Assembly: GCA_000004695.1 (NCBI GenBank)
Contig: CM000151.3
Coordinates: forward strand, 1,824,001-1,888,000
Source: Dictyostelium discoideum
Lineage: Eukaryota
Reading direction: 5' to 3'
Length of the DNA stretch: 64,000 nt
The notes below the pieces were generated by a model. The model was not told the origin of the DNA. It saw nothing but the letters and a program-made list of their open reading frames with translations, and searched no databases. The translations under genes and the position numbers were made by a program. Below, in pieces: positions 1,599 through 63,991 of the stretch. The first letter of the stretch is position 1. Every line of letters starts with the position of its first letter.

Positions 1599-1671
1599 GG
1601 TTTTATAGTGTAATTGGTTAGCACCCAGGACTTTGAATCCTGTAATCTGAGTTCGAGTCTCAGTAGAACCA
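1599..1671 (+). tRNA. tRNA-Gln (anticodon UUG)
   Basis: A 73-nt cloverleaf can be folded by hand. The acceptor stem GGTTTTA pairs with TAGAACC and is followed by discriminator A. The anticodon stem CAGGA/TCCTG encloses the loop CTTTGAA, giving anticodon TTG. The T-arm is CTGAG-TTCGAGT-CTCAG. There is no intron. Confidence 0.85.
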
Positions 1672-1698
1672 CTTTTTTCTCTCACCAAAAAGGTCGCA

Positions 1699-41231: not shown

Positions 41232-41334
41232 ATGTTAATATTTATAATATCAATAATAATTACTATTGCCTCAATAATATTTTTATTTGAAACTGTATTT
41301 AATAAAAATAGTAATACTATAAATAATAATAATA

Positions 41335-41395
<61 letters not shown>

Positions 41396-41588
41396 TAATA
41401 TAAAAGAAAACAACATAGACAAAAATAAAGAAATTAAAATAAAAGAAAAATTAATTTTAAATAATAATGACCCAAAAGAGAACGATTTAAAATATAAAGA
41501 AGAATTTAATAATTTTTTAAATAAATTTTCAAAAAATCAAGAATATGGTTATAAAGATAATTTAATTGATAATGAATTAAGAAATCAT

Positions 41589-41636
<48 letters not shown>

Positions 41637-44255
41637 GATGATCAATTTCCAAAATTAAAAGACATAGTTTATTTAGATCATGCAGCGAGTACATTAGCAT
41701 CAATGAATCAAATTGAAGAGATATCAAAAGAGTTAAAGAATTCAATGTTTTGTAATCCACATAGTGTTAATCCAATTGGACTAAAAACCAAAGAAGAGGT
41801 TGATTCAATTAGAGAGAACATATTAAACTATTTCAATGCACCCTATAGACAATATAGTGTAATATTTACAAGTGGTTGTACTGATAGTTTAAAAAAAGTT
41901 GGTGAATATTTTGCATGGACTAAAAATAGTAAATTCTATTATTCATTAGAATCTCATAATTCATTATTGGGTATAAGAGAATATGCATGTGAATCAATTG
42001 GTGGAAGTTCAACCACCTCATTTCAACCAATACCCTCATTATATTTTAAATGTAATAATAATCAATTTAACGATATTTTAGAGATTATTGGTAATAATGA
42101 TGATAATAATAATGAATCATATAGTTTATTTGGATATCCAGGACAATGTAATTATTCAGGTACGAAATATCCATTAGAATTAATAAATAGAATTCAAAAG
42201 AAGTATCCAAAATGTAAGGTGTTACTTGATGCAGCGAGTTTAGTATCAACATCATCATTTGATTTAACAAAGTATCCAGTTGATTTTATGACAATTTCAT
42301 TCTATAAAATGTTTGGTTATCCAACTGGTATTGGCGCATTAATTGTAAAGAATGATAGTGGTGAGAAATGTTTAATCAATAAAAAGTATTTTAGTGGTGG
42401 TACAGTTAATGTTTCAATGGCACAGGAAAGATTTCATGTTGATAGACCCTCATTAAGTGAAAGATTAGAAGATGGTACTATTAATTTCATGAATATAATT
42501 TCATTAAAACATGGTTTCAATATTATAAATAATCAATTAGGTGGTATTGATAATGTTAAATTACACACATTTTCATTGACTCAATATTGTAAAGAGGAAA
42601 TGTTGAAATTGTATCATAGTGATAATTCAAAACAACAACAACTTTGTATAATCTATTCAGATAATCATTTTAAAGATTCAAGTAAACAAGGTTCAATTAT
42701 TAATTTCAATATATTTAGATCAAATGGTGAATTATTTGGATATAATCAAGTTGAAAAGTTAGCATCATTATCATCGATTTATTTAAGAACTGGTTGTTTT
42801 TGTAATCCTGGTGCATGTCATGGTTATTTAAATCTATCAAAAAAAGATATTGAACAACATTTAAAAGATGGTCATGTTTGTTGGGATTCAAAAGATATAT
42901 TAAATGGTAAACCAACTGGTTCAGTTAGAATCTCATTTGGTTATATGAATAATTTTAATGATGTTTATAAATTCATTAATTTCTTAAAATCAAATTTTAT
43001 AAATGATCATAAATTTGAAAAAGAAGTTATAAAATCAAATAAAAAAATTAATAATAATCTTTGTGATATTAGTGATAATATTAGTTGTAGTGGAAGTTGT
43101 GGTGGAAGTTGTGGTAGTAGTGGAAGTGGTATTGAGGATTACCAAGTTCAATATAGTAATAATATAAAAGAAGAAAAAGAAGAAGAAGAAAAAGAAGAAA
43201 TTGAAAATTTAAAAAATGAAAAAGATAATGATGAAGTTTTATTATCAGAAATTTATATTTATCCAGTTAAATCATGTTCAGGACATAAAGTTGTAAATGA
43301 TAAATGGGAATTAGTACCATCAGGATTAAAATATGATAGAGAGTGGACAATTATTGATCAAAGTGGAAATTATATAAATCAAAAAAAGTTACCAATTTTA
43401 GCATTAATTCAAACTGAAATCGATTTAATTAATGATAAATTAATTTTAACAGCACCAGAGATGAAAGTTTTATCAATACCATTATCTTATTATCCAATAT
43501 CTGCTTTTGATCAAATTCAAGTTTGTGGTGATAAAGTTGATGGTTTATTATATGGAGATAAAGATTTCTCAAATACTAGTGGTAGTAGTGCTGGTAGTGG
43601 TGGTGGTGGTGGAGGTAATATTGATAATATTAGTGAATGGTTATATCAATTTATAGGTAAAAGATGTTATTTAGTTAGAAAATCACCAGAATCACATAGA
43701 AAATCAAAAGTTGACTCATCAAATGAAATTTCATTTGCAAATGAATCACCATATCTTTTAATTAATGAAGAGAGTGTATCAGATTTAAAAAAGAGAATTA
43801 TAAAGGATAACCCTGATAGCGTACCTTCTGATTGGAATTGGATAAGTAAACATAGTTTTAGAGCAAACTTTATCATCACTGGTGGTAAGGCTTATCAAGA
43901 AGATCTATGGTCACAATTTCAATTAATTAGTAAACAACAAAATGATACCACTCAATCATCATCGTCACCGTTAGTATTTAATTCAGTTGGTGATTGCAAT
44001 AGATGTAAAATGATATGTATTAATCAAAAGATGGGTATTGAAGAAAGAGAGCCATTATCAACTTTAGCATCCTATAGAAGATCAGGTGGTAAAATTATAT
44101 TTGGCCAACATTTAAATTTTGCTGATTCAATCAAAAGAAATAATTCTCATACAAATGATACAGCTTTAAGTAGTAATGAATCTTCAATCTCATCTTCAAA
44201 TCCAATATTTTTACATGTTCCAAGTAAATTAAAAGTTTTATCAGAGAGATATTAA
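41232..44255 (+). CDS. mocos: molybdenum cofactor sulfurase (MOCOS/ABA3/HxB type): NifS-like class V aminotransferase domain plus C-terminal MOSC domain, 1007 aa
   Basis: The NifS-like region reads [11 protein letters not shown] ... CNPHS ... [17 protein letters not shown]. The MOSC_N beta-barrel motif is [12 protein letters not shown], followed by the MOSC domain. The unusual N-terminus is a hydrophobic segment ([23 protein letters not shown]) followed by poly-N. Confidence 0.85.
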
Positions 44256-45110: not shown

Positions 45111-49250
<4,140 letters not shown>

Positions 49251-51233: not shown

Positions 51234-51548
51234 TTAAAAGAAGTGACCATGGTGATGACCGTGGTGGTGACCGTGGTGGTGATGGTGACCAGTTTCATAG
51301 ACGACTGTGGTAGTTGGATAAACCATTGGTTGTGGGACCATAACTGGAGCGCCCATCATTGGTGGTGGGACCATAACTGGAGCACCCATCATTGGTGGTT
51401 GACCGTAGATTGGCATTGGTTGAACCATTGGTTGGACCATTGGTTGGACCATTGGGACGACTGGAGCACCATAAACGCCGGTGGTGTAGGTAATGGTATC
51501 ATGATGGTGATGACCGTGATGACCGTGATGATGATGATGATGACCCAT
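51234..51548 (-). CDS. small histidine-rich protein (104 aa): HGHH-repeat termini flanking a P/V/Q/M-rich core; family member 1 of 3 in the window
   Basis: MGHHHHHHGHHGHHHHDTITYTTG...VQPMVQPMVQPMPIYGQPPMMGAPVMVPPP...ETGHHHHHGHHHGHHHGHFF. It has an ATG start and a compact non-AT-rich ORF. Confidence 0.7.
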   Translation of the reverse strand: MGHHHHHHGHHGHHHHDTITYTTGVYGAPVVPMVQPMVQPMVQPMPIYGQPPMMGAPVMVPPPMMGAPVMVPQPMVYPTTTVVYETGHHHHHGHHHGHHHGHFF

Positions 51549-53131: not shown

Positions 53132-53261
53132 GAAAAAAAAAAAATAATTAATTAAGCATTTGAAAAAAAAAAAAAAAAATTAACTAAAAAAAAAAAAAAT
53201 TGAAACAGAGTTCCACCTTTTCAACAAATTTTGAAAAAAAAAAAAAAAAATTAAAATCCAA

Positions 53262-53410
53262 TTCCACCGAGTATTATTTAATTATTTAATTATTTAATTA
53301 ATTATTCTGGTAATTCAAATAAAAATTAAAATACAATTACACCGAGTATTATTTAATTATTTAATTATTTAATTGTTTATTCTGGTAATTCAAATAAAAA
53401 TACAATTGAT
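53262..53410. repeat. tandem duplication of a ~72-bp unit (ccaccgagtattatttaattatttaattatttaatt...ctggtaattcaaataaaaat...acaatt)
   Basis: Two adjacent near-identical copies are seen directly. Confidence 0.7.
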
Positions 53411-54091
53411 GATGACAAACCAATAATGAAATCAAAAATGAATCCAAAAAGAATAATATAAATTTTATTTTATTTATAATTTTATTCTCAAACAATTTTA
53501 ATTATTTAGATTAATCTATTATTTTAGATCTAAAATAAAAATAACATTCCCACCAAAAACAATGATTGAGTATGTATAAAAATGATTATTTTGAGTGGAT
53601 TTGTGTTTAAAATATAATATAATAAATTTTGTACTTGTTTTTAATAATCATTTTTAAAAAATATATTTTTTTTTTTCTTTTATTATATTATTATTTATTT
53701 TTTTAATATTTTTTTTATTTTTTAATTTTTTATATAATAATAAATATTTTTGTTTTTTTTATTAAGTGTGTGATTGGGAATTTAAATTATAATTTAAATT
53801 ATATATAAATTAAAAATATAAACACTTCTCATAAACTACTTTTTATGGCAATGGGTGAAAAAAAAAAATAATATTCATTTAATTAAAAAAAAACACACCC
53901 TAAAAAAGTTTAATATGAATAAATAGTATTTCAATATGATGAAAGAAACATCGAGTGGTGAGTGTGGTAAACTTAACACAGTGTTTAATAAACATGATGA
54001 GAAATATTGAAAATCATACAACAAAACTGATAAATTACTAGGATGTGTGAGTGTGTTGAAAAACATTTTCAATAAATAATGTGATTATTTT

Positions 54092-54127
54092 TTAATTCAA
54101 TATTGAAGCATTACCTTATTATTATTA

Positions 54128-54158
<31 letters not shown>

Positions 54159-54290
54159 CAATATTGAAGCATTACCTTATTATTATTATTTTTTTTTTTT
54201 TTATTTATAATTTTTTTTTATTTATTCCTAATCATAACACTATAAATATTTATATTTTTTTTATTATTGAAGCTTTACATTATTATTTTA
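54092..54290. repeat. direct repeats of ~45 bp (ttaattcaatattgaagcattaccttattattattatttttt): two good copies plus a degenerate third
   Basis: Seen directly at ~54092, ~54153 and ~54262. Confidence 0.6.
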
Positions 54291-54398
54291 AATATATTTT
54301 TTTTTAATTGATTTTTATTTTAAATCATAAACATTAATAATAAATTAATAAACACATTCTCAAAAAAAAAAAATTTTAATATTAAAAAAAAATCAAAA

Positions 54399-56673
54399 AT
54401 GAAAATTATTATATTATTTTTTATATTATATTTAGTTTCTGTTACGCTCGGAGTTTTAATTGAACCAGTTTTCAAGGGCAAATATTTAATATTTAAAAAT
54501 AATTTTAAAAATTCTTTTGATGGCAATCTAATTCACCATTATTATCAGATACACATGCCAACACTTGACCATGTAAATTTTTAGCAATATCAATTGTCAT
54601 GACAGCAGCGCATGTTCTTGTTGTGCTATTATTTTTACATTCAAAAACCAAGTCATAGATAAAATCTTGAAAATTTCATTTTTGAAAATATGTACTATCA
54701 ATATCATATGTATATTCCAATGATTGTTTTGTAATTTTAAAATCTGAAATTAAAATAAAATTATTAGAAAAAATTAGTGTTGGAGATATCGATATCTTTT
54801 AAAAAAACACAATGTATCGACAAATGATTTATCCTATTTAGTTTTTTATCGACTCAATTTTTAAAAACAAATAAAATGAGGTAGTTATTAATTTTAAATT
54901 ATTTTGTTAAAAAAATGCAACTCTTTTTTTTTTTTTTAGGTAATCCTTTAGGTGACTCAATAGATGCTACAAATTTATTACTCGATTATAAAGGTGGTTG
55001 TGGTACGAGAATAATTCAGTGGCCAAACGGTTATAAATATAGCTTTAATCATTCTAATCCAGTAATTGATAATATCTCTATTGAAAGCTCATCTTTTATA
55101 TCACTTGGTCATAATTTTTGTAATAGTCCCGAGTCAATTCAAGTTTATTTAGATGGTGTTCAAATTGATAAATCAAAAATAAAATAAAATCAATTGATCA
55201 TGAACAATTTGAAATTATTTACAGTCAAGAACATTCAAAATCCATCATTGTGAAAATTGTCTCTGGTGGACTTGAATCAAACAAATTCAAATTAGACTAC
55301 AAACCAATGCCATTAAAAATTAATAGTGTTCCAAGATTAAAAGGTGGTTCAATTACAATAATTGGTGAAAGATTATCATCACAAGTAAATAATTCAACAA
55401 TCATTGTTAAAATTGGTCAATATGATTGTAAAAATGTAATCTCATCAAAAAATGAAATTCTATGTAATTTAGAATCGGTTTCAAATGTTGAAAAAGTCAA
55501 ATTGGTAGATTTACCAGTTAATATCTCAATAAATGGCATTTTTAATGAAAATAATTTATTATTCTCATTCGATACTCCAATAATATCAGATTTTATACTT
55601 CCTCAAGGTGAAGTTAAATTAGTTGGCCATTGTTTTGGTTATTCACAAATAACTCAAATTAATATTGACAATGTATTACAATCCAACATAACAATTAATA
55701 TAAATGAAAAAGAAACAACACTTTTATTTAAGCCAATTCTTCCAATTAAAAAATCAAAGTTATATATAATTGTCAATGGTACAAAATCAAATACTATTGA
55801 AATTGATTCATCATTTTTTGTAAAAAGTGTTCCATCATCACCTTCAGTAAATGGCCAAACTGTAAACTTTACACTTTTCAATATAAACACAAATAATTTT
55901 AATGCAACACCAATTATGACTTTTCAAGATAATAGTTCAATTAAATCAACTGATTATAAAAATTCAAATGAATATTCCACTCATATATACTCTTTTGAAA
56001 TTCCAAAAAGTTGTGGTAGAAATGAAATTACAATAAACAAGTTTACAATTGTTCATTTATAAAATATAAATCTATCTCTTGTGATATTAAATTAGAAGGT
56101 CCGTTTGATCAACTTTGTAAAATCAAATTTAATGGTAAAGATGAGGAGAACAACATTTCAATATCATATTATCCTCCATTAGTATTAAATTCAACAACGA
56201 TTTCAAATTCATCGATTGGTGGAATTATTACAATTTTTGGTAATGAATTTTATAATGAAATTGATTTAATTACAGTTGGTAAAAGCAAATGTTTAAACTC
56301 TACATTTATAAATTCAACATCAATTTCATGTTTTGTGGAACCTTCAAATTTTATTATTAATCAAGCCAAACAACAACAACAACAACAATATGTTAACATT
56401 ACAATTAATGGTAAAAGTGGTGGCAATAATTTAAATATTTATTTTGATAATTCATTTATTGAAGTTAAAAATTAATCAAGCGAAAATGATAAAAACAACA
56501 ACAACAACAACAATGGTAGAAATAAAATTAATGATGATAGTAAAACTGATGGTAGAAGTTTGTATGAAAAATATAAAAAATATTTTATAGCACCTATAAT
56601 AATCGTTAGTTTGTCATTAATTATAGTTGCCTTTAAACTTATACTTTACTTTAATAGAAAAAATGGGCTGTAG
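54399..56673 (+). pseudogene. IPT/TIG-domain cell-surface protein pseudogene (Tgr/Tiger-like architecture: signal peptide, several IPT/TIG repeats, TM, short tail), disrupted by at least 2 frameshifts and an in-frame stop before the TM segment
   Basis: The signal-peptide ORF is 54399.. (MKIIILFFILYLVSVTLG). IPT-like modules read GGSITIIGERLSS...CKNVISSKNEILCNL and [44 protein letters not shown]. The coding segments 54915..55187, ~55196..56062 and ~56040..56475 lie in three different frames with no GT..AG introns between them. A TAA at ~56473 is followed in the same frame by ...YFIAPIIIVSLSLIIVAFKLILYFNRKNGL* (TM plus tail). Confidence 0.5.
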
Positions 56674-56747
56674 TCTATTGGAAATATATTATAAAAGAGA
56701 AAATAAAAAAATTTAAAAATAGAAAAGAGCAAAAATGTATAGATGGT

Positions 56748-57083
56748 ATGAGAGAAATATTAAATAATGCAGAGAAAAATTTTCCTGACATAAAATTAGA
56801 TAATGTAATAACTTATAAAAAGTATAAAATGCCACAAGAAAAAAGTGTAGAAGGAGAACTAAAAGAACAAGCACCTCCTCTAAGTGAATATGACCAATTT
56901 CCAAGTTATTATTTACATTCACCAAAAGATTCACAACCTTCAAATCAAATTGAAACTTTACCAAAAGATTCACCTCCTCCAAATCAAAATGAAAAATTAA
57001 CAGAAGATTCATTACCACCTTCAAATCAAATTGAAACGTTACCAGAAGATTCATCACCACCTCCAAATCAAACTGAAAAATAA
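56748..57083 (+). CDS. hypothetical small protein (111 aa) with tandem P/S/Q-rich ~12-aa repeats (SQPSNQIETLPKDS / SLPPSNQIETLPEDS)
   Basis: Track ORF. The repeats are seen directly. It could instead be an additional degraded tail fragment of the upstream pseudogene. Confidence 0.3.
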   Translation: MREILNNAEKNFPDIKLDNVITYKKYKMPQEKSVEGELKEQAPPLSEYDQFPSYYLHSPKDSQPSNQIETLPKDSPPPNQNEKLTEDSLPPSNQIETLPEDSSPPPNQTEK

Positions 57084-57293
57084 CAGACAATTCATCATCT
57101 CGAGATGGACCATCAAGCTCTTCATAATTTCTTTTTTTTCTTTACTGGACCACTTTCTGTATTTTTAATAATTACAGATTGGAACCCACCAAAGCTATTA
57201 CTATTATTATTATTGTTGTTGTTGTTGTTATTATTTGTAGTATTCATACCACTTGCAAGATCTGCTAATGGGTCAAATACCATTGGTTTATTA

Positions 57294-57531
57294 TTAATCG
57301 ATTAAAGTTGGTTGTTGTTGTTGGGATGATTGGAAATTTGGTGTTGCTGGTGAAGGTCCACTTCCACTTGCTGCTCTTGGTCTACTTCTTTCGCCAGATG
57401 CTGCATTTGGATTATTTTGGATATGTATTATATAATCCAAAAGCCATAAAAAAAAAATAAAACTCACCTGCTCTATTACTATAATTTTCATATTCTGCTC
57501 TAGTATTACTATATGGATCCGAATCATATGA

Positions 57532-57581
<50 letters not shown>

Positions 57582-57884
57582 AACCTTCATCTCTACCATT
57601 GAAAGAGTCTCTTCTGGTTGTTTCTCTTTGGTTACCACCATATGAATATCTTTGGTTACCACCATATGAATCTCTTTGATTACCACCATATGAATCTCTT
57701 TGATTACTACCATATGAATCTGAATCATAACCACCACCATATGAGCCACCTCCATAACCAAAGTCACTGTTATCATTACCAATACCAACATATTTATTTT
57801 GGTTAGTCTTTGCTTTATCTCTTTCCTCTTTAATTCTTTGATCATCTTGTAATAAATCAATAACTTGTTTTGCTCTTTCACGAA
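57294..57884 (-). other. orphan 3' gene fragment: two exons (57884..57468, 57400..57294) encoding an ENTH-domain-like terminal helix followed by SYGGNQRD repeats, poly-N and a C-terminal tail; no possible start codon upstream
   Basis: The correct frame (not the track frame) reads ..VRERAKQVIDLLQDDQRIKEERDKAKTNQNKYVGIGNDNSDFGYGGGSYGGGYDSDSYGSNQRDSYGGNQRDSYGGNQRYSYGGNQRETTRRDSFNGRDEGYGN(12)SYDSDPYSNTRAEYENYSNRAG | AASGERSRPRAASGSGPSPATPNFQSSQQQQPTLID*. The donor is GCAG|GTGAGT and the acceptor TGCAG. The upstream acceptor is TTTTAAAAG at ~57886. The 165 bp between this exon and the stop of the next minus-strand gene contains no ATG on the minus strand. Confidence 0.5.
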
Positions 57885-58059
57885 CTTTTAAAATAAATTG
57901 TTTATTTAAAAAAATATTTTGTTATTATGTGAATTCAATTTTTAAAAAATAATGAAAAAAAAAAAAAAAGGATGTAAATATTGATGATAATACTAAACTT
58001 TAAACAAAGGATCTTTTAATAAAAAAAAAGACACAAACCACTTTTTTTGTTTTTTTAAT

Positions 58060-59429
58060 TTATTTTGAATTAATTAAAAGATTATAAACTACAAATGATT
58101 TGGTTTGATCTTTTTTAAAATTAGGAATACTTTCAATTGCTTTTACGATTTGAGCTTCAGATATTTTAAAACCCATTTGATTAATAAAGAATTCGACAAT
58201 ATAAAATTGATCCCAACTAATAGCATGTTCCAATAATAAAGATAATTCTTTTTGAGTGTAAATTGAATTATTATTTGAAAGTTTCTTTGTTAAAACTCTA
58301 CGATATTGTTGATCATAAAATAAATGTTGAATTATTCTTAACCAACCATTTTTAATTACACCCTTTAAAAATTCGAATAGAGTTTCTTTGGCACTTTCAA
58401 TACTCACTTCAAAATCGGTACCATCAAATATTGGAAAATAAAATTCATTTAATAGTTTACATAATAAATTGATATCACCACTTTTTTTTACCCAATCTAA
58501 TAATTCCAAAATAACTTGATAATAGGGAGATGGATAACGTGGAATTCGATAATTATTTTCAAAAATCCATTTATTATTAATTTTATCATTTGAGAATATT
58601 GATTTTATACTATTATTATTATTATTATCTAATTTATTTGATATGAATAAACCAATATAATAACCTTTTGAAATTGTAAATCTACCAGATATTAAATCTT
58701 CATATCTAAAATTAAACATCCAATCAAGTAATTTAATTTTATTTGAATTCATATAATTATCATTTAAATGATCATTAAATTCCATTCTATTATTAGTTTT
58801 ACTAAGGATGGTTATTATATCATCAATATCTAATCTTGGATTTCTATTGATTTCTAAATAATGTGTAATTGCATCTTCTGTATATTTATAAATTCCAATT
58901 GGTTTATTAATTATATATGCTGCTGTTTTAATTAAATTTGATCTTTCAAAATTACTGTTATTTTCTTCAAGAATATTTTTTGAAAATGGTAATAATAAAT
59001 CTATATTACTATTGCTATTATTATTATTATTATTATTATTATCACTACTATTACTATTATTATTATTAGTAATTCCTAATAATTGTTCAAATCTTTCTAA
59101 TAAATCAATTCTACCTAGTGAATACCATGATACCATATCTTGAACTCTTTTAAAGAAACTATTTAAATGGTGAAAACAATAATCTAACATTTTAATTGAT
59201 TTAATATGTCTATGAAAATATGAAAATGATGAAAGGTATCCCTGATGTAATGCCATCATTGACTCTTTTTCAAGTACTTTTATTATATTAGAACAATTAT
59301 TATTAACAATACTATCCTCACCACCATATCCTTTAATTGCGATTTCAAGTAACTCTAAATCATCATATGATATTAATAAATGAAATATTGTGAATACTGA
59401 TAAATTTGACCATTCCTTATTCTTATTAT

Positions 59430-59525
<96 letters not shown>

Positions 59526-60034
59526 GATCATTTATTGCATTATTTATAAATTGAATTCTTTGTTTTTTACTATGACAATTTGAAAATAAAATATATGGAT
59601 ATTCTTCACCATGATTACTAACAGATTTGAAATTTTTAAAAATAGGTGGTAACACTTTTGAATCACCATAATGGTTAACTATAAATTTAAATAATTCGTA
59701 ATTTCCATACTCTAATGAAATAATTAAAAAGTATTCCCTTGGATATGGACTAGATGGAAGATGTGCTTTAAATATATCTTTATCAAAATCTAAATTAAAT
59801 ACTATTCTAATTTCAATTTGTTGAATAATTGTTCTACGAATTGGACTTTTTTCTTCACAAAAATCAATTAACTTTTTAATATTTGCTGTAGTTTGTTGAT
59901 AATTATTATTATTACTATCTTCATCATTTATTAACTTTGGTATTATTGATTTTATTTGAAGTTTAAGTTGAGAATTTGATAATTTTGATTTAATTTCATT
60001 AATTAATGGTACAATCAAATTTAAATCATCATTG

Positions 60035-60075
<41 letters not shown>

Positions 60076-60567
60076 TATATATGAAATTGAATAACAATAA
60101 TTTATTAAATCATTAATTGTAAATTTAGTTATATTAGTGGTACTTTTAATATTTATTTTAATTAAATCATCAAAAAGATTTTTTGTAACTACAGAAGATT
60201 GTAAAAAAAGGTAATTTAAAAATTTATATCTTTTTGGCGGATTTGAACGATGAGAATTTCCATTTGATTGGTTTATTAATAAATTTGTTAATAAACCTTT
60301 AATAATACAATTAGTTTTATCAGTATAAGTTTCCCAAAAATATTTAAACATTTTTAAATGTGAATGTATATTTATTAAATTTAAAATGTTTACCAACGAT
60401 TGTTCTTTTATTTTCCCATTTTTAGGTCCAAATTTACAATAGTTAAAATAATTATCTAATAAAACTTGAAATCCTTGAAAATTACCCACCTCTATTAATT
60501 CTTTTAAAACTTTTTTAAAACTAATAAAATATTTACCATAATTTCTAAATAACAATTCAAAGAATTC

Positions 60568-60666
<99 letters not shown>

Positions 60667-61245
60667 TGTTGGTGCATTTGTTTCTTTTTTATTTGATTTA
60701 TATTCTTTTTGAATATTAATAAATATATTTAAATACCATTCGGATTGTGGACAACGACCATCATAATAATAATTTCCAATTATTGGTTCATTTCTTTTGA
60801 TTTTATCTTTTAATAAATTTAAATAACCATTATTTAAAATCCAATCAATGTAAATTAAATCATCATATGAGTGATATTTACAATTTAAATTACCAAATAT
60901 GGTTTTAAATAAGATTTTATTTTTAAAAACTCTCCAAAATAATTGTTCATGTTTTTCAATATCTTTGATTGGTAATTGATAAATGCTACTATTAAATTTA
61001 TTAATTAATTTCTCTTTTGTTAATTCTTGTTTAATATTTCTTGAATCGTTCACAAATTTCTTTATTCTTTCAATTATTTCACTTTTTCTACCATTTGCTT
61101 TTAATTTTAATGTTTTTGCAACTTTTATTAATTCTCTACTTGATTTTGATTCTAATGATTCCATATCAATATCTTCTTTATTAGTGTCTAAATTATTTAT
61201 ACTATCATTCTCTTTTTTAAATTCATCTGTCTCATTATTTATCAT
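58060..61245 (-). CDS. lineage-specific SAP-domain protein (1061 aa) with poly-N tracts; paralog of 45111..49250
   Basis: The N-terminal SAP motif is SRELIKVAKTLKLKANGRKSEIIERIKKFV. The shared family motif is EQLFWRVFKNKILFKTIF. The ORF is unspliced with an ATG at 61245. Confidence 0.8.
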
Positions 61246-61679
61246 TTCAATTCAAAGTTTATTTGGGGTGGAATTGAAAAAAAAAAAAATGATCAAAAAA
61301 AAAAAAAAAAAGTAAAATAAAAAAAAAAAAAAATAATGAAAATAAAAAAAATTTAAGAATTAATTTAAAAAAAAAAAAATATTAAAGATCTAAAATAACC
61401 ACGATATTAAAAACACCCGACGATAACCCATACTGCCATCTCTTCATTTACTGTACCAAAATCAGACACATTATAATATTCCGATTCTCTCTGAAAACAT
61501 TTGTAACAATACCCGCAATCCTCATTTACCATCCACAACACATTAAAACAAAAGTGGAGCTCTCTACACATTAACACTTCCTTCTCCCTCATTAACTACA
61601 AACTAAAACATTACACTCTAAAACAAAAATTAAATAACAAACAATAAGCAAAGGAATATTACCTTACATTAGAAATTTA

Positions 61680-62350
61680 TTTATTTTTTATTAATTAAAA
61701 GATTATAAACTACAAATGGTTTAGCTTCATCTTTTTCAGAATTTATAATTGCCTTTGCGATTTGAGGTTCAGTTATTTTAAACCCATTTGATCAACAAAG
61801 AATTCGGCAATATAAAATTGATCCCAACTAATAGCATGTCTCAATAATAAAGATAATTCTGTTTGAGTGTAAATTGAATTATTACTTGAAAGTTTCTTTG
61901 TTAAAACTCTACGATATTGTTGATCATAAAATAAATGTTGAATTATTCTTAACCAACCATTTTTAATTACACCCTTTAAAAATTCGAATAGAGTTTCTTT
62001 GGCACTTTCAATACTCACTTCAAAATCGGTACCATCAAATATTGGAAAATAAAATTCATTTAATAGTTTACATAATAAATTGATATCACCACTTTTAAAA
62101 GCCAATCGATGTCATTTATATCATCATATGAGTGATATTTACAATTTAAATAATTAAATATGGTTTTAAATAAAATTTTATTTTTAAAAACTCTCCAAAT
62201 TCTTTCAATTATTTCACTTTTTCTACCATTTGCTTTTAATTATAAAGTTTTTGCTACTTTTGTTAATTATTAACCAGATTTTGATTCTAATGATTCCATA
62301 TCAATATCTTCTTCATTATTATTATAATCTGTCTCATTATTTATCATTTA
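61680..62350 (-). pseudogene. mosaic relic copy of the adjacent SAP-domain gene: 3' ~450 bp plus two short internal pieces plus 5' ~200 bp (including start-codon region and upstream flank), collapsed by internal deletions
   Basis: Track ORF 61773..62105 (MAFKSGDINLLCKLLNEFYFPIFDGTDFEVSIESAKETLFEFLKGVIKNGWLRIIQHLFYDQQYRRVLTKKLSSNNSIYTQTELSLLLRHAISWDQFYIAEFF...) is >90% identical to the C-terminus of 58060..61245. The DNA then continues with matches to ~60830..60960 and ~61060..61265 of the parent locus. Confidence 0.7.
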
Positions 62351-62872
62351 AGTTCAAAGTTTATTTGGTTTGTGGAATTAAAAAAAAAAAAAAAAAAAAA
62401 AAATTTTATGTTTTGGTGGAAATAAAAAAAAAATAATTAAAGCCCCAAGAAACTCAAAAGCGCCAAAAGTTAACTTGGTGTATTAATGAAAAAAAACCAT
62501 GATATTTAATAAGGGGAGTCGAATAGAAAATAAAAAAATATAAGTAAAAAAAATAAAAAAAAAGAGGCGACAAACCAACCAGCGTCGCATAAAATTACTT
62601 TTCACCACTTTAATGCTGAAATTTTTACATTCAACCTTAATATTTAAACAAACAAAAATTGAAAAACAGAGCGGTTATTTTGATTTGAATAAGAAAATTA
62701 TGACCAAAAATAAATAGATAAATATTTTATTAAACATAAAAAAAAAAAGTAAAAAAAAAAAGTAAAAAAAAATAAAAATAAAGATAATAATAAATAGAAA
62801 AAATAAATTACAAGATTGTTTTTTTTTTTTTTTTTTTTTATTTGTTGAGTAACTTTTAAAACTTCAAACTAT

Positions 62873-63127
62873 TTAAAAGAAATGACCATGATGTCCGTGG
62901 TGTCCATGGTGACCATGATGACCATGATGGTGGCTAGTTTCGATGACAACATTGGTTGGTGGATAAACTACTGGAGCACCCATAACGACTTGTGGTTGAA
63001 CCATCATTGGTGGTTGACCATAAACTGGCATTGGTTGAACCATTGGTTGGACAATTGGGGTAGTTGTGTAAGTAACGTGTTCGTGGTGACCGTGATGACC
63101 GTGATGATGATGACCGTGTGGAGGCAT
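62873..63127 (-). CDS. small histidine-rich protein (84 aa), family member 2
   Basis: MPPHGHHHHGHHGHHEHVTYTTTPIVQPMVQPMPVYGQPPMM...ETSHHHGHHGHHGHHGHHGHFF. It has the same architecture as 51234..51548. Confidence 0.7.
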   Translation of the reverse strand: MPPHGHHHHGHHGHHEHVTYTTTPIVQPMVQPMPVYGQPPMMVQPQVVMGAPVVYPPTNVVIETSHHHGHHGHHGHHGHHGHFF

Positions 63128-63721: not shown

Positions 63722-63991
63722 TTAGTGGTGACCATGATGACCGTGGTGGTGATGATCATGATGACCATGATGGCCATGGTGATGATGATGTCCATGGTGG
63801 TGACCAGTTTCTAAGACAATTGTAGCTTGTGGATAAACTACTGGTGGTTGAACATAAACTGGTTGGACAACTGGTGGTGGTGCATAAATTGGTTGAACAA
63901 CTTGTGGTGGTGCATAAACTGGAGTGATTGTAATATGTTCATGGTGACCATGGTGACCATGGTGATGATGATGATGACCGTGTGGAGGCAT
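63722..63991 (-). CDS. small histidine-rich protein (89 aa), family member 3
   Basis: MPPHGHHHHHHGHHGHHEHITITPVYAPPQVVQPIYAPPPVVQPVYVQPPVVYPQATIVLETGHHHGHHHHHGHHGHHDHHHHGHHGHH, with an ATG at 63991. Confidence 0.7.
   Translation of the reverse strand: MPPHGHHHHHHGHHGHHEHITITPVYAPPQVVQPIYAPPPVVQPVYVQPPVVYPQATIVLETGHHHGHHHHHGHHGHHDHHHHGHHGHH

Follow-up and report, generated by a model that had tools for sequence, protein, structure and literature searches.

The relic analyzed in this study is an internally deleted copy of an adjacent gene in Dictyostelium discoideum. It lies in a 64,000-nucleotide (nt) stretch of chromosome 2 (hereafter the window), whose GC content ranges from 16 to 30% and which encodes many poly-Asn tracts; the D. 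discoideum genome as a whole is 77–80% AT. The parent gene (58060–61245, minus strand) is an intact single-exon open reading frame (ORF) encoding 1061 amino acid residues, and the relic (61679–62403, minus) is colinear with it, is located 433 nt upstream of its ATG and is on the same strand. The relic is very probably a young non-processed (duplicated) pseudogene that was formed via tandem duplication, deletion and later gene conversion, which we infer to have occurred in that order.

Comparisons were made across two D. discoideum genomes, the window and the assembly GCA_054883475.1 (locus tags ACTFIT; locus L003), and with the syntenic locus of D. citrinum (L001). GCA_054883475.1 is one of the Nanopore assemblies of PMC12745789/PRJNA1300491. 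Its identity to the window was 99.6–99.75% over 36 kb, with 12 single-nucleotide polymorphisms (SNPs) and 5 insertions or deletions (indels) across 12.2 kb. The sequence of the relic was the same in both D. discoideum genomes, with 0 differences.

Structure of the Relic

BLASTN comparison of the relic region (61451–63000) with the parent region (57500–61450) gave three colinear high-scoring segment pairs on the same strand, and all other matches were low-complexity noise; the similarity far exceeds what chance would give. The relic segment 61676–62096 matched 58055–58485 (92.8% over 431 nt, 634 bits, E = 0), 62073–62199 matched 60811–60938 (89% over 128 nt, 165 bits, E = 1e-43) and 62199–62403 matched 61064–61304 (77.8% over 243 nt with gaps, 209 bits, E = 9e-57). 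The copy was not shuffled. A global alignment of the relic with the parent and three-way alignments that included the D. citrinum ortholog showed that the relic retained a leader of ~55 nt, the ATG, two N-terminal pieces of 119 and 103 nt and the last ~428 nt of the parent, while stretches of 126 and 2,350 nt were missing. The total loss was 2.5 kb of coding sequence. The sequence-only reading had described a mosaic of the last ~450 bp of the parent, two short internal pieces and its first ~200 bp, promoter-proximal flank included, which agrees in substance with this map; BLASTN and the alignments also agreed with that reading on an adjacent duplicate in the same orientation.

The leader and start region (62319–62403, minus) consists of a T-run followed by TAATTCCACAAACCAAATAAACTTTGAACTTAA, the ATG (62347–62345), the first seven codons and a shortened low-complexity stretch; the alignment block of leader and ATG covered 62403–62327. 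Its counterpart, the leader and core-promoter-proximal flank of the parent (61246–61311, minus), has a T-run, then CAATTCCACCCCAAATAAACTTTGAATTGAA, then the ATG, and is duplicated upstream of the relic, as would be expected of a tandem copy. Common to both is a T-run followed by AATTCCAC..CCAAATAAACTTTGAA.T.AA, and upstream homology fades into T-runs ~55–100 nt before the ATG. The low-complexity stretch after codon 7 is 33 nt shorter in the relic than in the parent. Given that these 33 nt were present in both the parent and D. citrinum, the deletion was on the relic side.

The next two blocks correspond to the N-terminal part of the parent. The SAP-motif block (62200–62318, minus) is equivalent to parent 61065–61183, with 109 of 119 positions identical (92%), and its motif is broken. 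At its 3′ end is the 126-nt deletion, which is in-frame and has a microhomology of 1 nt. The block at 62097–62199 (minus) is equivalent to parent 60836–60938 (94 of 103 positions identical, 91%) and covers the LFW motif LFWRVFKNKILF, of which WRVFKNKILFKTIF...DIDW remains; a hidden Markov model of the LFW module matched this fragment at 43 bits. The 2,350-nt deletion at its 3′ end fuses ...GATTGGCTTTTAAA with AGTGGTGATATC..., out of frame by 1 nt. The breakpoints in the parent follow the homeologous motifs IDWILNNGYLNLL (residue ~133) and LDWVKKSGDINLL (residue ~915), which are of the "DW..G..NLL" repeat type and share GATTGG upstream and AATTTATTA downstream, with AAA(A) as the microhomology at the breakpoint. 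The repeat architecture of the parent is a natural substrate for deletion from repeat to repeat.

Beyond the large junction, the C-terminal block (61783–62096, minus; parent 58172–58485) was identical at 307 of 314 positions (98%). The 3′-terminal block (61679–61782, minus; parent 58058–58170) was 85–88% identical and contained, in order, a 1-nt deletion, 39 nt at 85%, a 9-nt deletion, 65 nt at 88% and the ancestral stop codon. This TAA (61683–61681) can be reached only via a third reading frame. Homology between the relic and the parent stopped 2–8 nt past the stop codon; after its stop codon, the relic continues with ATAAATTTCTAATGTAAGG. No poly(A) tract was found after the relic, where the sequence reads ...TAAATAAATTTCTAATGTAAGG.

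The homologous span, which runs approximately from leader to stop codon, resembles a transcript. It is nevertheless highly improbable that the relic is a processed pseudogene, i.e., a retrocopy of an aberrantly spliced parent mRNA made by the reverse transcriptase of a TRE or other long interspersed nuclear element (LINE). TRE retrotransposons insert next to tRNA genes, and a tRNA gene of the kind that they target is found in the window. However, in addition to the absence of poly(A), the T-run that precedes the leader is part of the homology, which stops before any 3′ untranslated region, the deletion junctions are not GT-AG and the copy is immediately adjacent to the parent in the same orientation. 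The combination of a 3′ poly(A) remnant with no promoter DNA, by which retrocopies are recognized, was not found. Colinear homology, disabling lesions and signs of a genomic origin (an upstream flank, no poly(A) and linkage to the parent), by which duplicated pseudogenes are recognized, were all found.

Disabling Lesions and Gene Models on the Relic

Translated from its ATG, the relic reads MINNETDYNNNEEDIDMESLESKSG, followed by two TAA codons and, nine codons on, by a third stop. These in-frame stops are codons 26 and 27 (62272–62267) and codon 36 (62242–62240). In addition, the relic has two frameshifts, one at the 2,350-nt junction and the other near the 3′ end, such that three reading frames are needed to read it through, with the last 31 codons in the third. 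Because of the three in-frame stops and two frameshifts, the relic is classified as a non-processed pseudogene, probably without protein function. An open frame of 107 codons (62096–61776), most of it formed by the C-terminal block, has no ATG and differs in phase from the relic start codon. Owing to the late frameshift, the C-terminal domain lacks its final two predicted helices. In the 314-nt block, all seven differences from the parent were nonsynonymous, a count that was not significantly different from neutrality. The changes in the 5′ blocks comprised 14 relic-derived and 5 parent-derived ones, numbers that are small and confounded by gene conversion. Both counts are consistent with neutrality or relaxed constraint on the relic.

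Two gene models have been placed on the relic, both at 61773–62347 (minus; 10001–10575 in L003). The AX4 model, DDB_G0272722 (P0004, XP_644857.1, UniProt Q86IJ7), is a hypothetical protein of 105 amino acid residues on the 8.48-Mb chromosome 2 record, with exons at ~62347–62275 and 62017–61773. The other model, ACTFIT_002625 (P0003), has 144 residues and three exons. Both begin at the relic ATG and finish at the frameshift-induced stop (61775–61773). Their "introns," however, differ: one of 257 nt that starts with GTTAAT versus two of 42 and ~100 nt. These "introns" consist of parent-derived coding sequence with a GC content of ~22%. Peptides unique to the relic include LSSNNSIYTQTELSLLLR and HAISWDQFYIAEFFVDQMGLK. 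A word-index protein search with the relic model found the two relic models only. Judged from their sequences, both models are most likely artefacts of ab initio prediction.

That the relic is instead a real, expressed small gene, whose product of ~105–144 residues with two or three ankyrin-like repeats corresponds to DDB_G0272722/ACTFIT_002625, or that its retained promoter drives a regulatory non-coding transcript, is very unlikely. Such a gene would account for the protein-coding annotation in two genomes, for the retention of leader, T-run and ATG, for a 107-codon frame that stays open in sequence of 23% GC and for the lack of differences between the two isolates. The models, however, disagree with each other, and their introns, one of which is just 42 nt long, have poor donor sites and consist of coding sequence derived from the parent. 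Moreover, the substitutions in the open frame are all nonsynonymous, two predicted helices are lost from the end of the domain through the frameshift, and a recent conversion tract (see below) would largely account for the open frame. A literature search for the gene IDs found no mention of DDB_G0272722 in searchable papers. It would be similarly surprising if the relic promoter worked and the resulting transcript or small ankyrin-like protein modulated the adjacent parent. If so, modulation could occur via transcriptional interference across the 433 nt, via small RNAs from the 211-nt tract that is identical in both copies or via a dominant-negative fragment, and the GC-richer spacer described below would have been acquired recently as regulatory or exonic DNA.

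The main value of the finding of a pseudogene is annotation correction, and no long-standing question is opened by it. DDB_G0272722 (Q86IJ7) and ACTFIT_002625 should be annotated as a pseudogene derived from the neighboring gene, not as orphan protein-coding genes.

A Putative Gene-Conversion Tract

Divergence between the relic and the parent is uneven. A tract of 211 nt (61886–62096, minus), which begins exactly at the junction of the large deletion, was identical to parent 58275–58485. The number of differences was 0 of 211 positions in this tract, 21 of 207 in the next relic DNA and 19 of 222 in the 5′ blocks. The Fisher test gave p = 5e-5. The homologous DNA that flanks the tract had diverged from the parent by 9–10%. 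When the 43 differences were permuted over the 683 aligned positions, a gap as long was found in 0 of 100,000 permutations (p < 1e-5). The divergence between the parent and its D. citrinum ortholog was 20.4% inside the tract and 20.6% beside it, and thus the tract is not a slowly evolving region.

The simplest reading of these alignments is that the identical tract is a gene-conversion patch, which relic and parent exchanged, in either direction, once the deletion had occurred. The conversion would then have one of its edges pinned where homology ends. The persistence of a long open frame in the relic would also be attributable to this patch.

Origin and Age of the Duplicate

In D. citrinum, L001 is syntenic with the window on both sides of the parent. 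The His-rich gene at window 64000–62766 corresponds to L001 8278–9482, and the ortholog of the parent is at L001 10000–13086, with the Frag1 gene and a gene encoding 1379 residues further on. The His-rich gene and the ATG of the ortholog are only 518 nt apart, and the syntenic interval contains a single copy of the gene and no relic. In the alignments, the upstream region of the ortholog consisted of TAA repeats, and the parent leader was not found there. Relative to D. citrinum, the relic and the parent also share derived states in addition to this leader. Lineage specificity, which had been proposed earlier for the family, is borne out for the relic by the syntenic interval of D. citrinum, with its one gene and no relic.

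The relic-specific divergence was 6.3%, whereas the synonymous divergence (dS) per lineage is ~0.165, half of the dS of 0.33 between the parent and its D. citrinum ortholog. By this comparison the duplication would date to ~0.35–0.4 of the time since the split of D. discoideum and D. citrinum, assuming a clock and no further gene conversion.

These data suggest the following series of events. In the lineage of D. discoideum, the region from ~55–100 nt before the ATG to just past the stop codon would have been duplicated in tandem. Recombination or slippage between the homeologous ankyrin-like repeat motifs, at AAA(A) and out of frame, would then have removed 2,350 nt from the upstream copy, which would also have lost 126 nt and several smaller pieces and gained three stop codons. 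After the large deletion, gene conversion with the neighboring parent would have re-homogenized the ~211 nt that abut the junction.

A spacer of 289 nt (61390–61678) between the relic stop and the T-rich promoter region of the parent fits this series of events less well. While the T-rich segment 61246–61389 fits a plain tandem duplication, the spacer does not. Its GC content is 31.8% versus 11–15% in neighboring intergenic DNA, it is strongly skewed to G and T on the gene-sense (minus) strand (G74/C18), and it holds an ORF of 61 residues (61407–61592, minus). Its similarity to the 3′ flank of the parent, the 5′ flank of the relic, the D. citrinum flanks, the window and L001 was at the level of shuffled sequence throughout. 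The spacer had no Rfam match at E ≤ 1 and its predicted RNA fold was not unusual (z = +0.88), and no Pfam match was found for the 61-residue ORF. Replacement of the downstream flank of the parent after duplication was considered and rejected, as 57882–58059 still resembles the downstream sequence in D. citrinum (z = 5.7). Because the parent's own 3′ flank has not been replaced, the spacer is either inserted or filler DNA, or the event was more complex.

Several points weigh against a recent tandem duplication followed by decay. A plain tandem duplication predicts a copy of the 3′ flank of the parent, the 5′ flank of the relic or both between the two copies, and the spacer is neither. A random breakpoint would hardly be expected so close to the stop codon, where the homology ends. 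An older duplicate might also appear young as a result of concerted evolution. Regarding the loss of function, the seven nonsynonymous differences do not by themselves exclude function, and a transcript or a small protein could still be made from the relic.

The spacer keeps alive a rival in which the relic never was full-length. Serial template switches of the kind known as microhomology-mediated break-induced replication or fork stalling and template switching (MMBIR/FoSTeS) could have assembled the leader, the two N-terminal pieces, the 3′ end and a filler spacer in one step. This origin is unlikely but clearly less so than a retrocopy or a functional small gene. It fits the junctions, where microhomology is very short (1 nt for the 126-nt gap and AAA(A) for the 2,350-nt gap), as well as the unique spacer at the 3′ junction and the homology that breaks off abruptly at the stop codon. 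However, the large junction is between homeologous repeat motifs, as in intragenic repeat-mediated deletion, the small indels (33, 9, 1, and 2–3 nt) resemble ordinary decay of a pseudogene, and the uneven divergence still requires a second event. Moreover, the end product, a dead partial duplicate, would be the same. Full duplication with several deletions and a one-step template-switching copy cannot be told apart. Thus, of the earlier suggestion of a tandem duplication later collapsed by internal deletions, the duplicate, its adjacency and the leader stand, whereas the spacer does not follow from a simple tandem duplication and a single mosaic event is indistinguishable from the collapse. 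Tandem duplication, repeat-mediated deletion and conversion remain the preferred account, for which this locus provides a small, clean and datable example in an AT-rich genome.

The Parent Gene and Its Family

The parent has a weak SAP motif at residues 32–65 and an "LFW" module at residues ~100–160. These are followed by a long region that is entirely helical and contains poly-Asn tracts; the C-terminal domain (residues ~900–1061) is ankyrin-like. The architecture can best be summarized as a SAP-like motif with an LFW module and a long, degenerate array of ankyrin-like helical repeats. The score of its SAP match (Pfam PF02037, residues 32–65, E = 2.3e-4) was 21.2 bits, which is below the gathering score of 23.9 bits, and the paralog P0002 with 21.1 bits was likewise below it. 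AlphaFold2 (AF2) predicted two helices in this region with predicted local distance difference test (pLDDT) values of 60–71, and UniProt names the relatives "SAP domain-containing." A SAP domain, as proposed from the sequence alone, is likely, although sub-threshold in the parent. No Ank profile of Pfam matched the parent at E ≤ 0.1. The full-length AF2 model was unusable (pLDDT 40); only the model of the C-terminal domain was searched with Foldseek against PDB, which gave nothing below E = 0.35.

Between the parent and its D. citrinum ortholog, the nonsynonymous divergence (dN) was 0.22 and dS was 0.33, with an omega of ~0.66–0.74. By these estimates the parent evolves fast for an intact gene. 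Between the two D. discoideum genomes it contained 5 SNPs, of which 3 were nonsynonymous. The ACTFIT annotation has a 1212-residue model in which the parent is fused to an unrelated downstream orphan fragment and which should be split.

A HMMER search with the parent against 1.84 billion representatives matched 21 proteins. They included the D. citrinum ortholog, the two relic models and ~11 proteins that matched only residues ~20–170, such as DDB_G0285087, DDB_G0271164 and proteins of D. purpureum and D. citrinum; the rest were poly-Asn noise. All matches with a readable source were dictyostelid, and among these the family of the parent was seen only in dictyostelids. The paralog ACTFIR_002419 aligned with the parent over its own whole length, with 30% identity. 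A word-index protein search with the parent, either raw or with poly-Asn removed, found the D. citrinum ortholog and one paralog only. The parent also matched an LFW-module profile (~70 residues) built from 8 family members, from which the parent and its ortholog were left out, and it thus belongs to a dictyostelid family with SAP and the LFW module.

The protein encoded at 45111–49250 had been regarded as a paralog that marks an actively duplicating family. Its residues 10–79 matched the LFW profile (35 bits, E = 8.6e-9 in a proteome-sized search), and the module is therefore shared. BLASTP of this protein versus the parent was not significant; it had no SAP match, and no similarity to the parent was detected beyond the ~60-residue N-terminal module. 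An ortholog of the 45111–49250 gene was found at the same place in D. citrinum, and hence the gene pair predates the discoideum/citrinum split. The pair does not point to recent duplication.

Elsewhere in the family, DDB_G0271164 (P0010, AX4 chromosome 2), of 288 residues, was 77% identical to residues 1–168 of the 561-residue ACTFIW_011123 (P0007), and beyond that match it jumps to residues 449–472. It may be a second internally collapsed copy or a faulty gene model.

Neighboring Genes

A segment of ~4.9 kb (53146–58055), from the Frag1 gene to the stop codon of the parent, has no counterpart at the syntenic place in D. citrinum (L001 13086 to 13564). This segment contains a TgrO1-like Ig/TIG gene on the plus strand with exons at 54915–55187, 55250–56062 and 56748–57083. 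From the comparison of the two loci, this gene beside the duplicated locus looks like a lineage-specific insertion of the tgr family since the D. citrinum split. Also in this segment is the 3′ fragment of an orphan gene (57294–57881, minus), which reads VRERAKQVIDLLQDDQRIKEERDKAK... followed by a G/Y/N-rich tail and has one GT-AG intron. Only 178 nt lie between this fragment and the stop codon of the parent, which leaves no room for upstream exons. The fragment may be a second gene relic. A resemblance to the end of an ENTH domain was not confirmed, as no Pfam or PDB match was found.

Small His-rich genes (MPPHGHHHH...GHHGHH) are in tandem just upstream of the relic (62873–63127 and 63722–63991, minus), and another is at 51234–51548 (minus). 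In D. citrinum, His-rich copies were found at L001 7280–7537, 8278–9482 and 14867–15322. The two upstream of the relic are uncalled in the ACTFIT annotation. Further away, an ORF at 41232–44255 (plus) has the domain set of a molybdenum cofactor sulfurase (Aminotran_5, MOSC_N and MOSC). Finally, a tRNA-Gln(UUG) gene at 1599–1672 (plus) was the sole Rfam/ARAGORN match in the window.

Comparison With Known Systems

The relic is ordinary biology, a young duplicated pseudogene that was mis-annotated as a gene. For the tgr family of AX4, 26 pseudogenes are counted besides 38 genes, and the surroundings of the tgrBC locus are reported to contain duplicates as well as partial gene fragments (PMC12745789). 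Similar to duplicated pseudogenes near their parents, such as those of tgr, the relic is in tandem and in the same orientation and keeps promoter-proximal DNA. Moreover, it has stops, frameshifts and internal deletions, is lineage-specific and is probably in part homogenized with its neighbor. Different from the tgr pseudogenes, however, it is outside the tgr family and the tgrBC hotspot, consists of one relic with one parent and is accompanied by an unrelated spacer of 289 nt.

Similar to DDB_G0285087, DDB_G0271164, DICPUDRAFT_83501 and ACTFIR_002419, the parent has an N-terminus composed of a SAP-like motif, a linker and LFW[KR]VF[KR]NK..F...Y(D/E)......LLK(D/E)K. The HMMER E-values between the parent and dictyostelid "SAP domain-containing" proteins ranged from 1e-7 to 1e-27 over residues ~20–170. 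Beyond residue ~170, most of these proteins had no detectable similarity to the parent, and the function is known for none of them. With ankyrin-repeat proteins, such as the ANK domain of Osh1 (5h28), Yar1 (4bsz) and ankyrin-1, the parent shares a predicted resemblance at the level of the fold, at identities of 7–19%.

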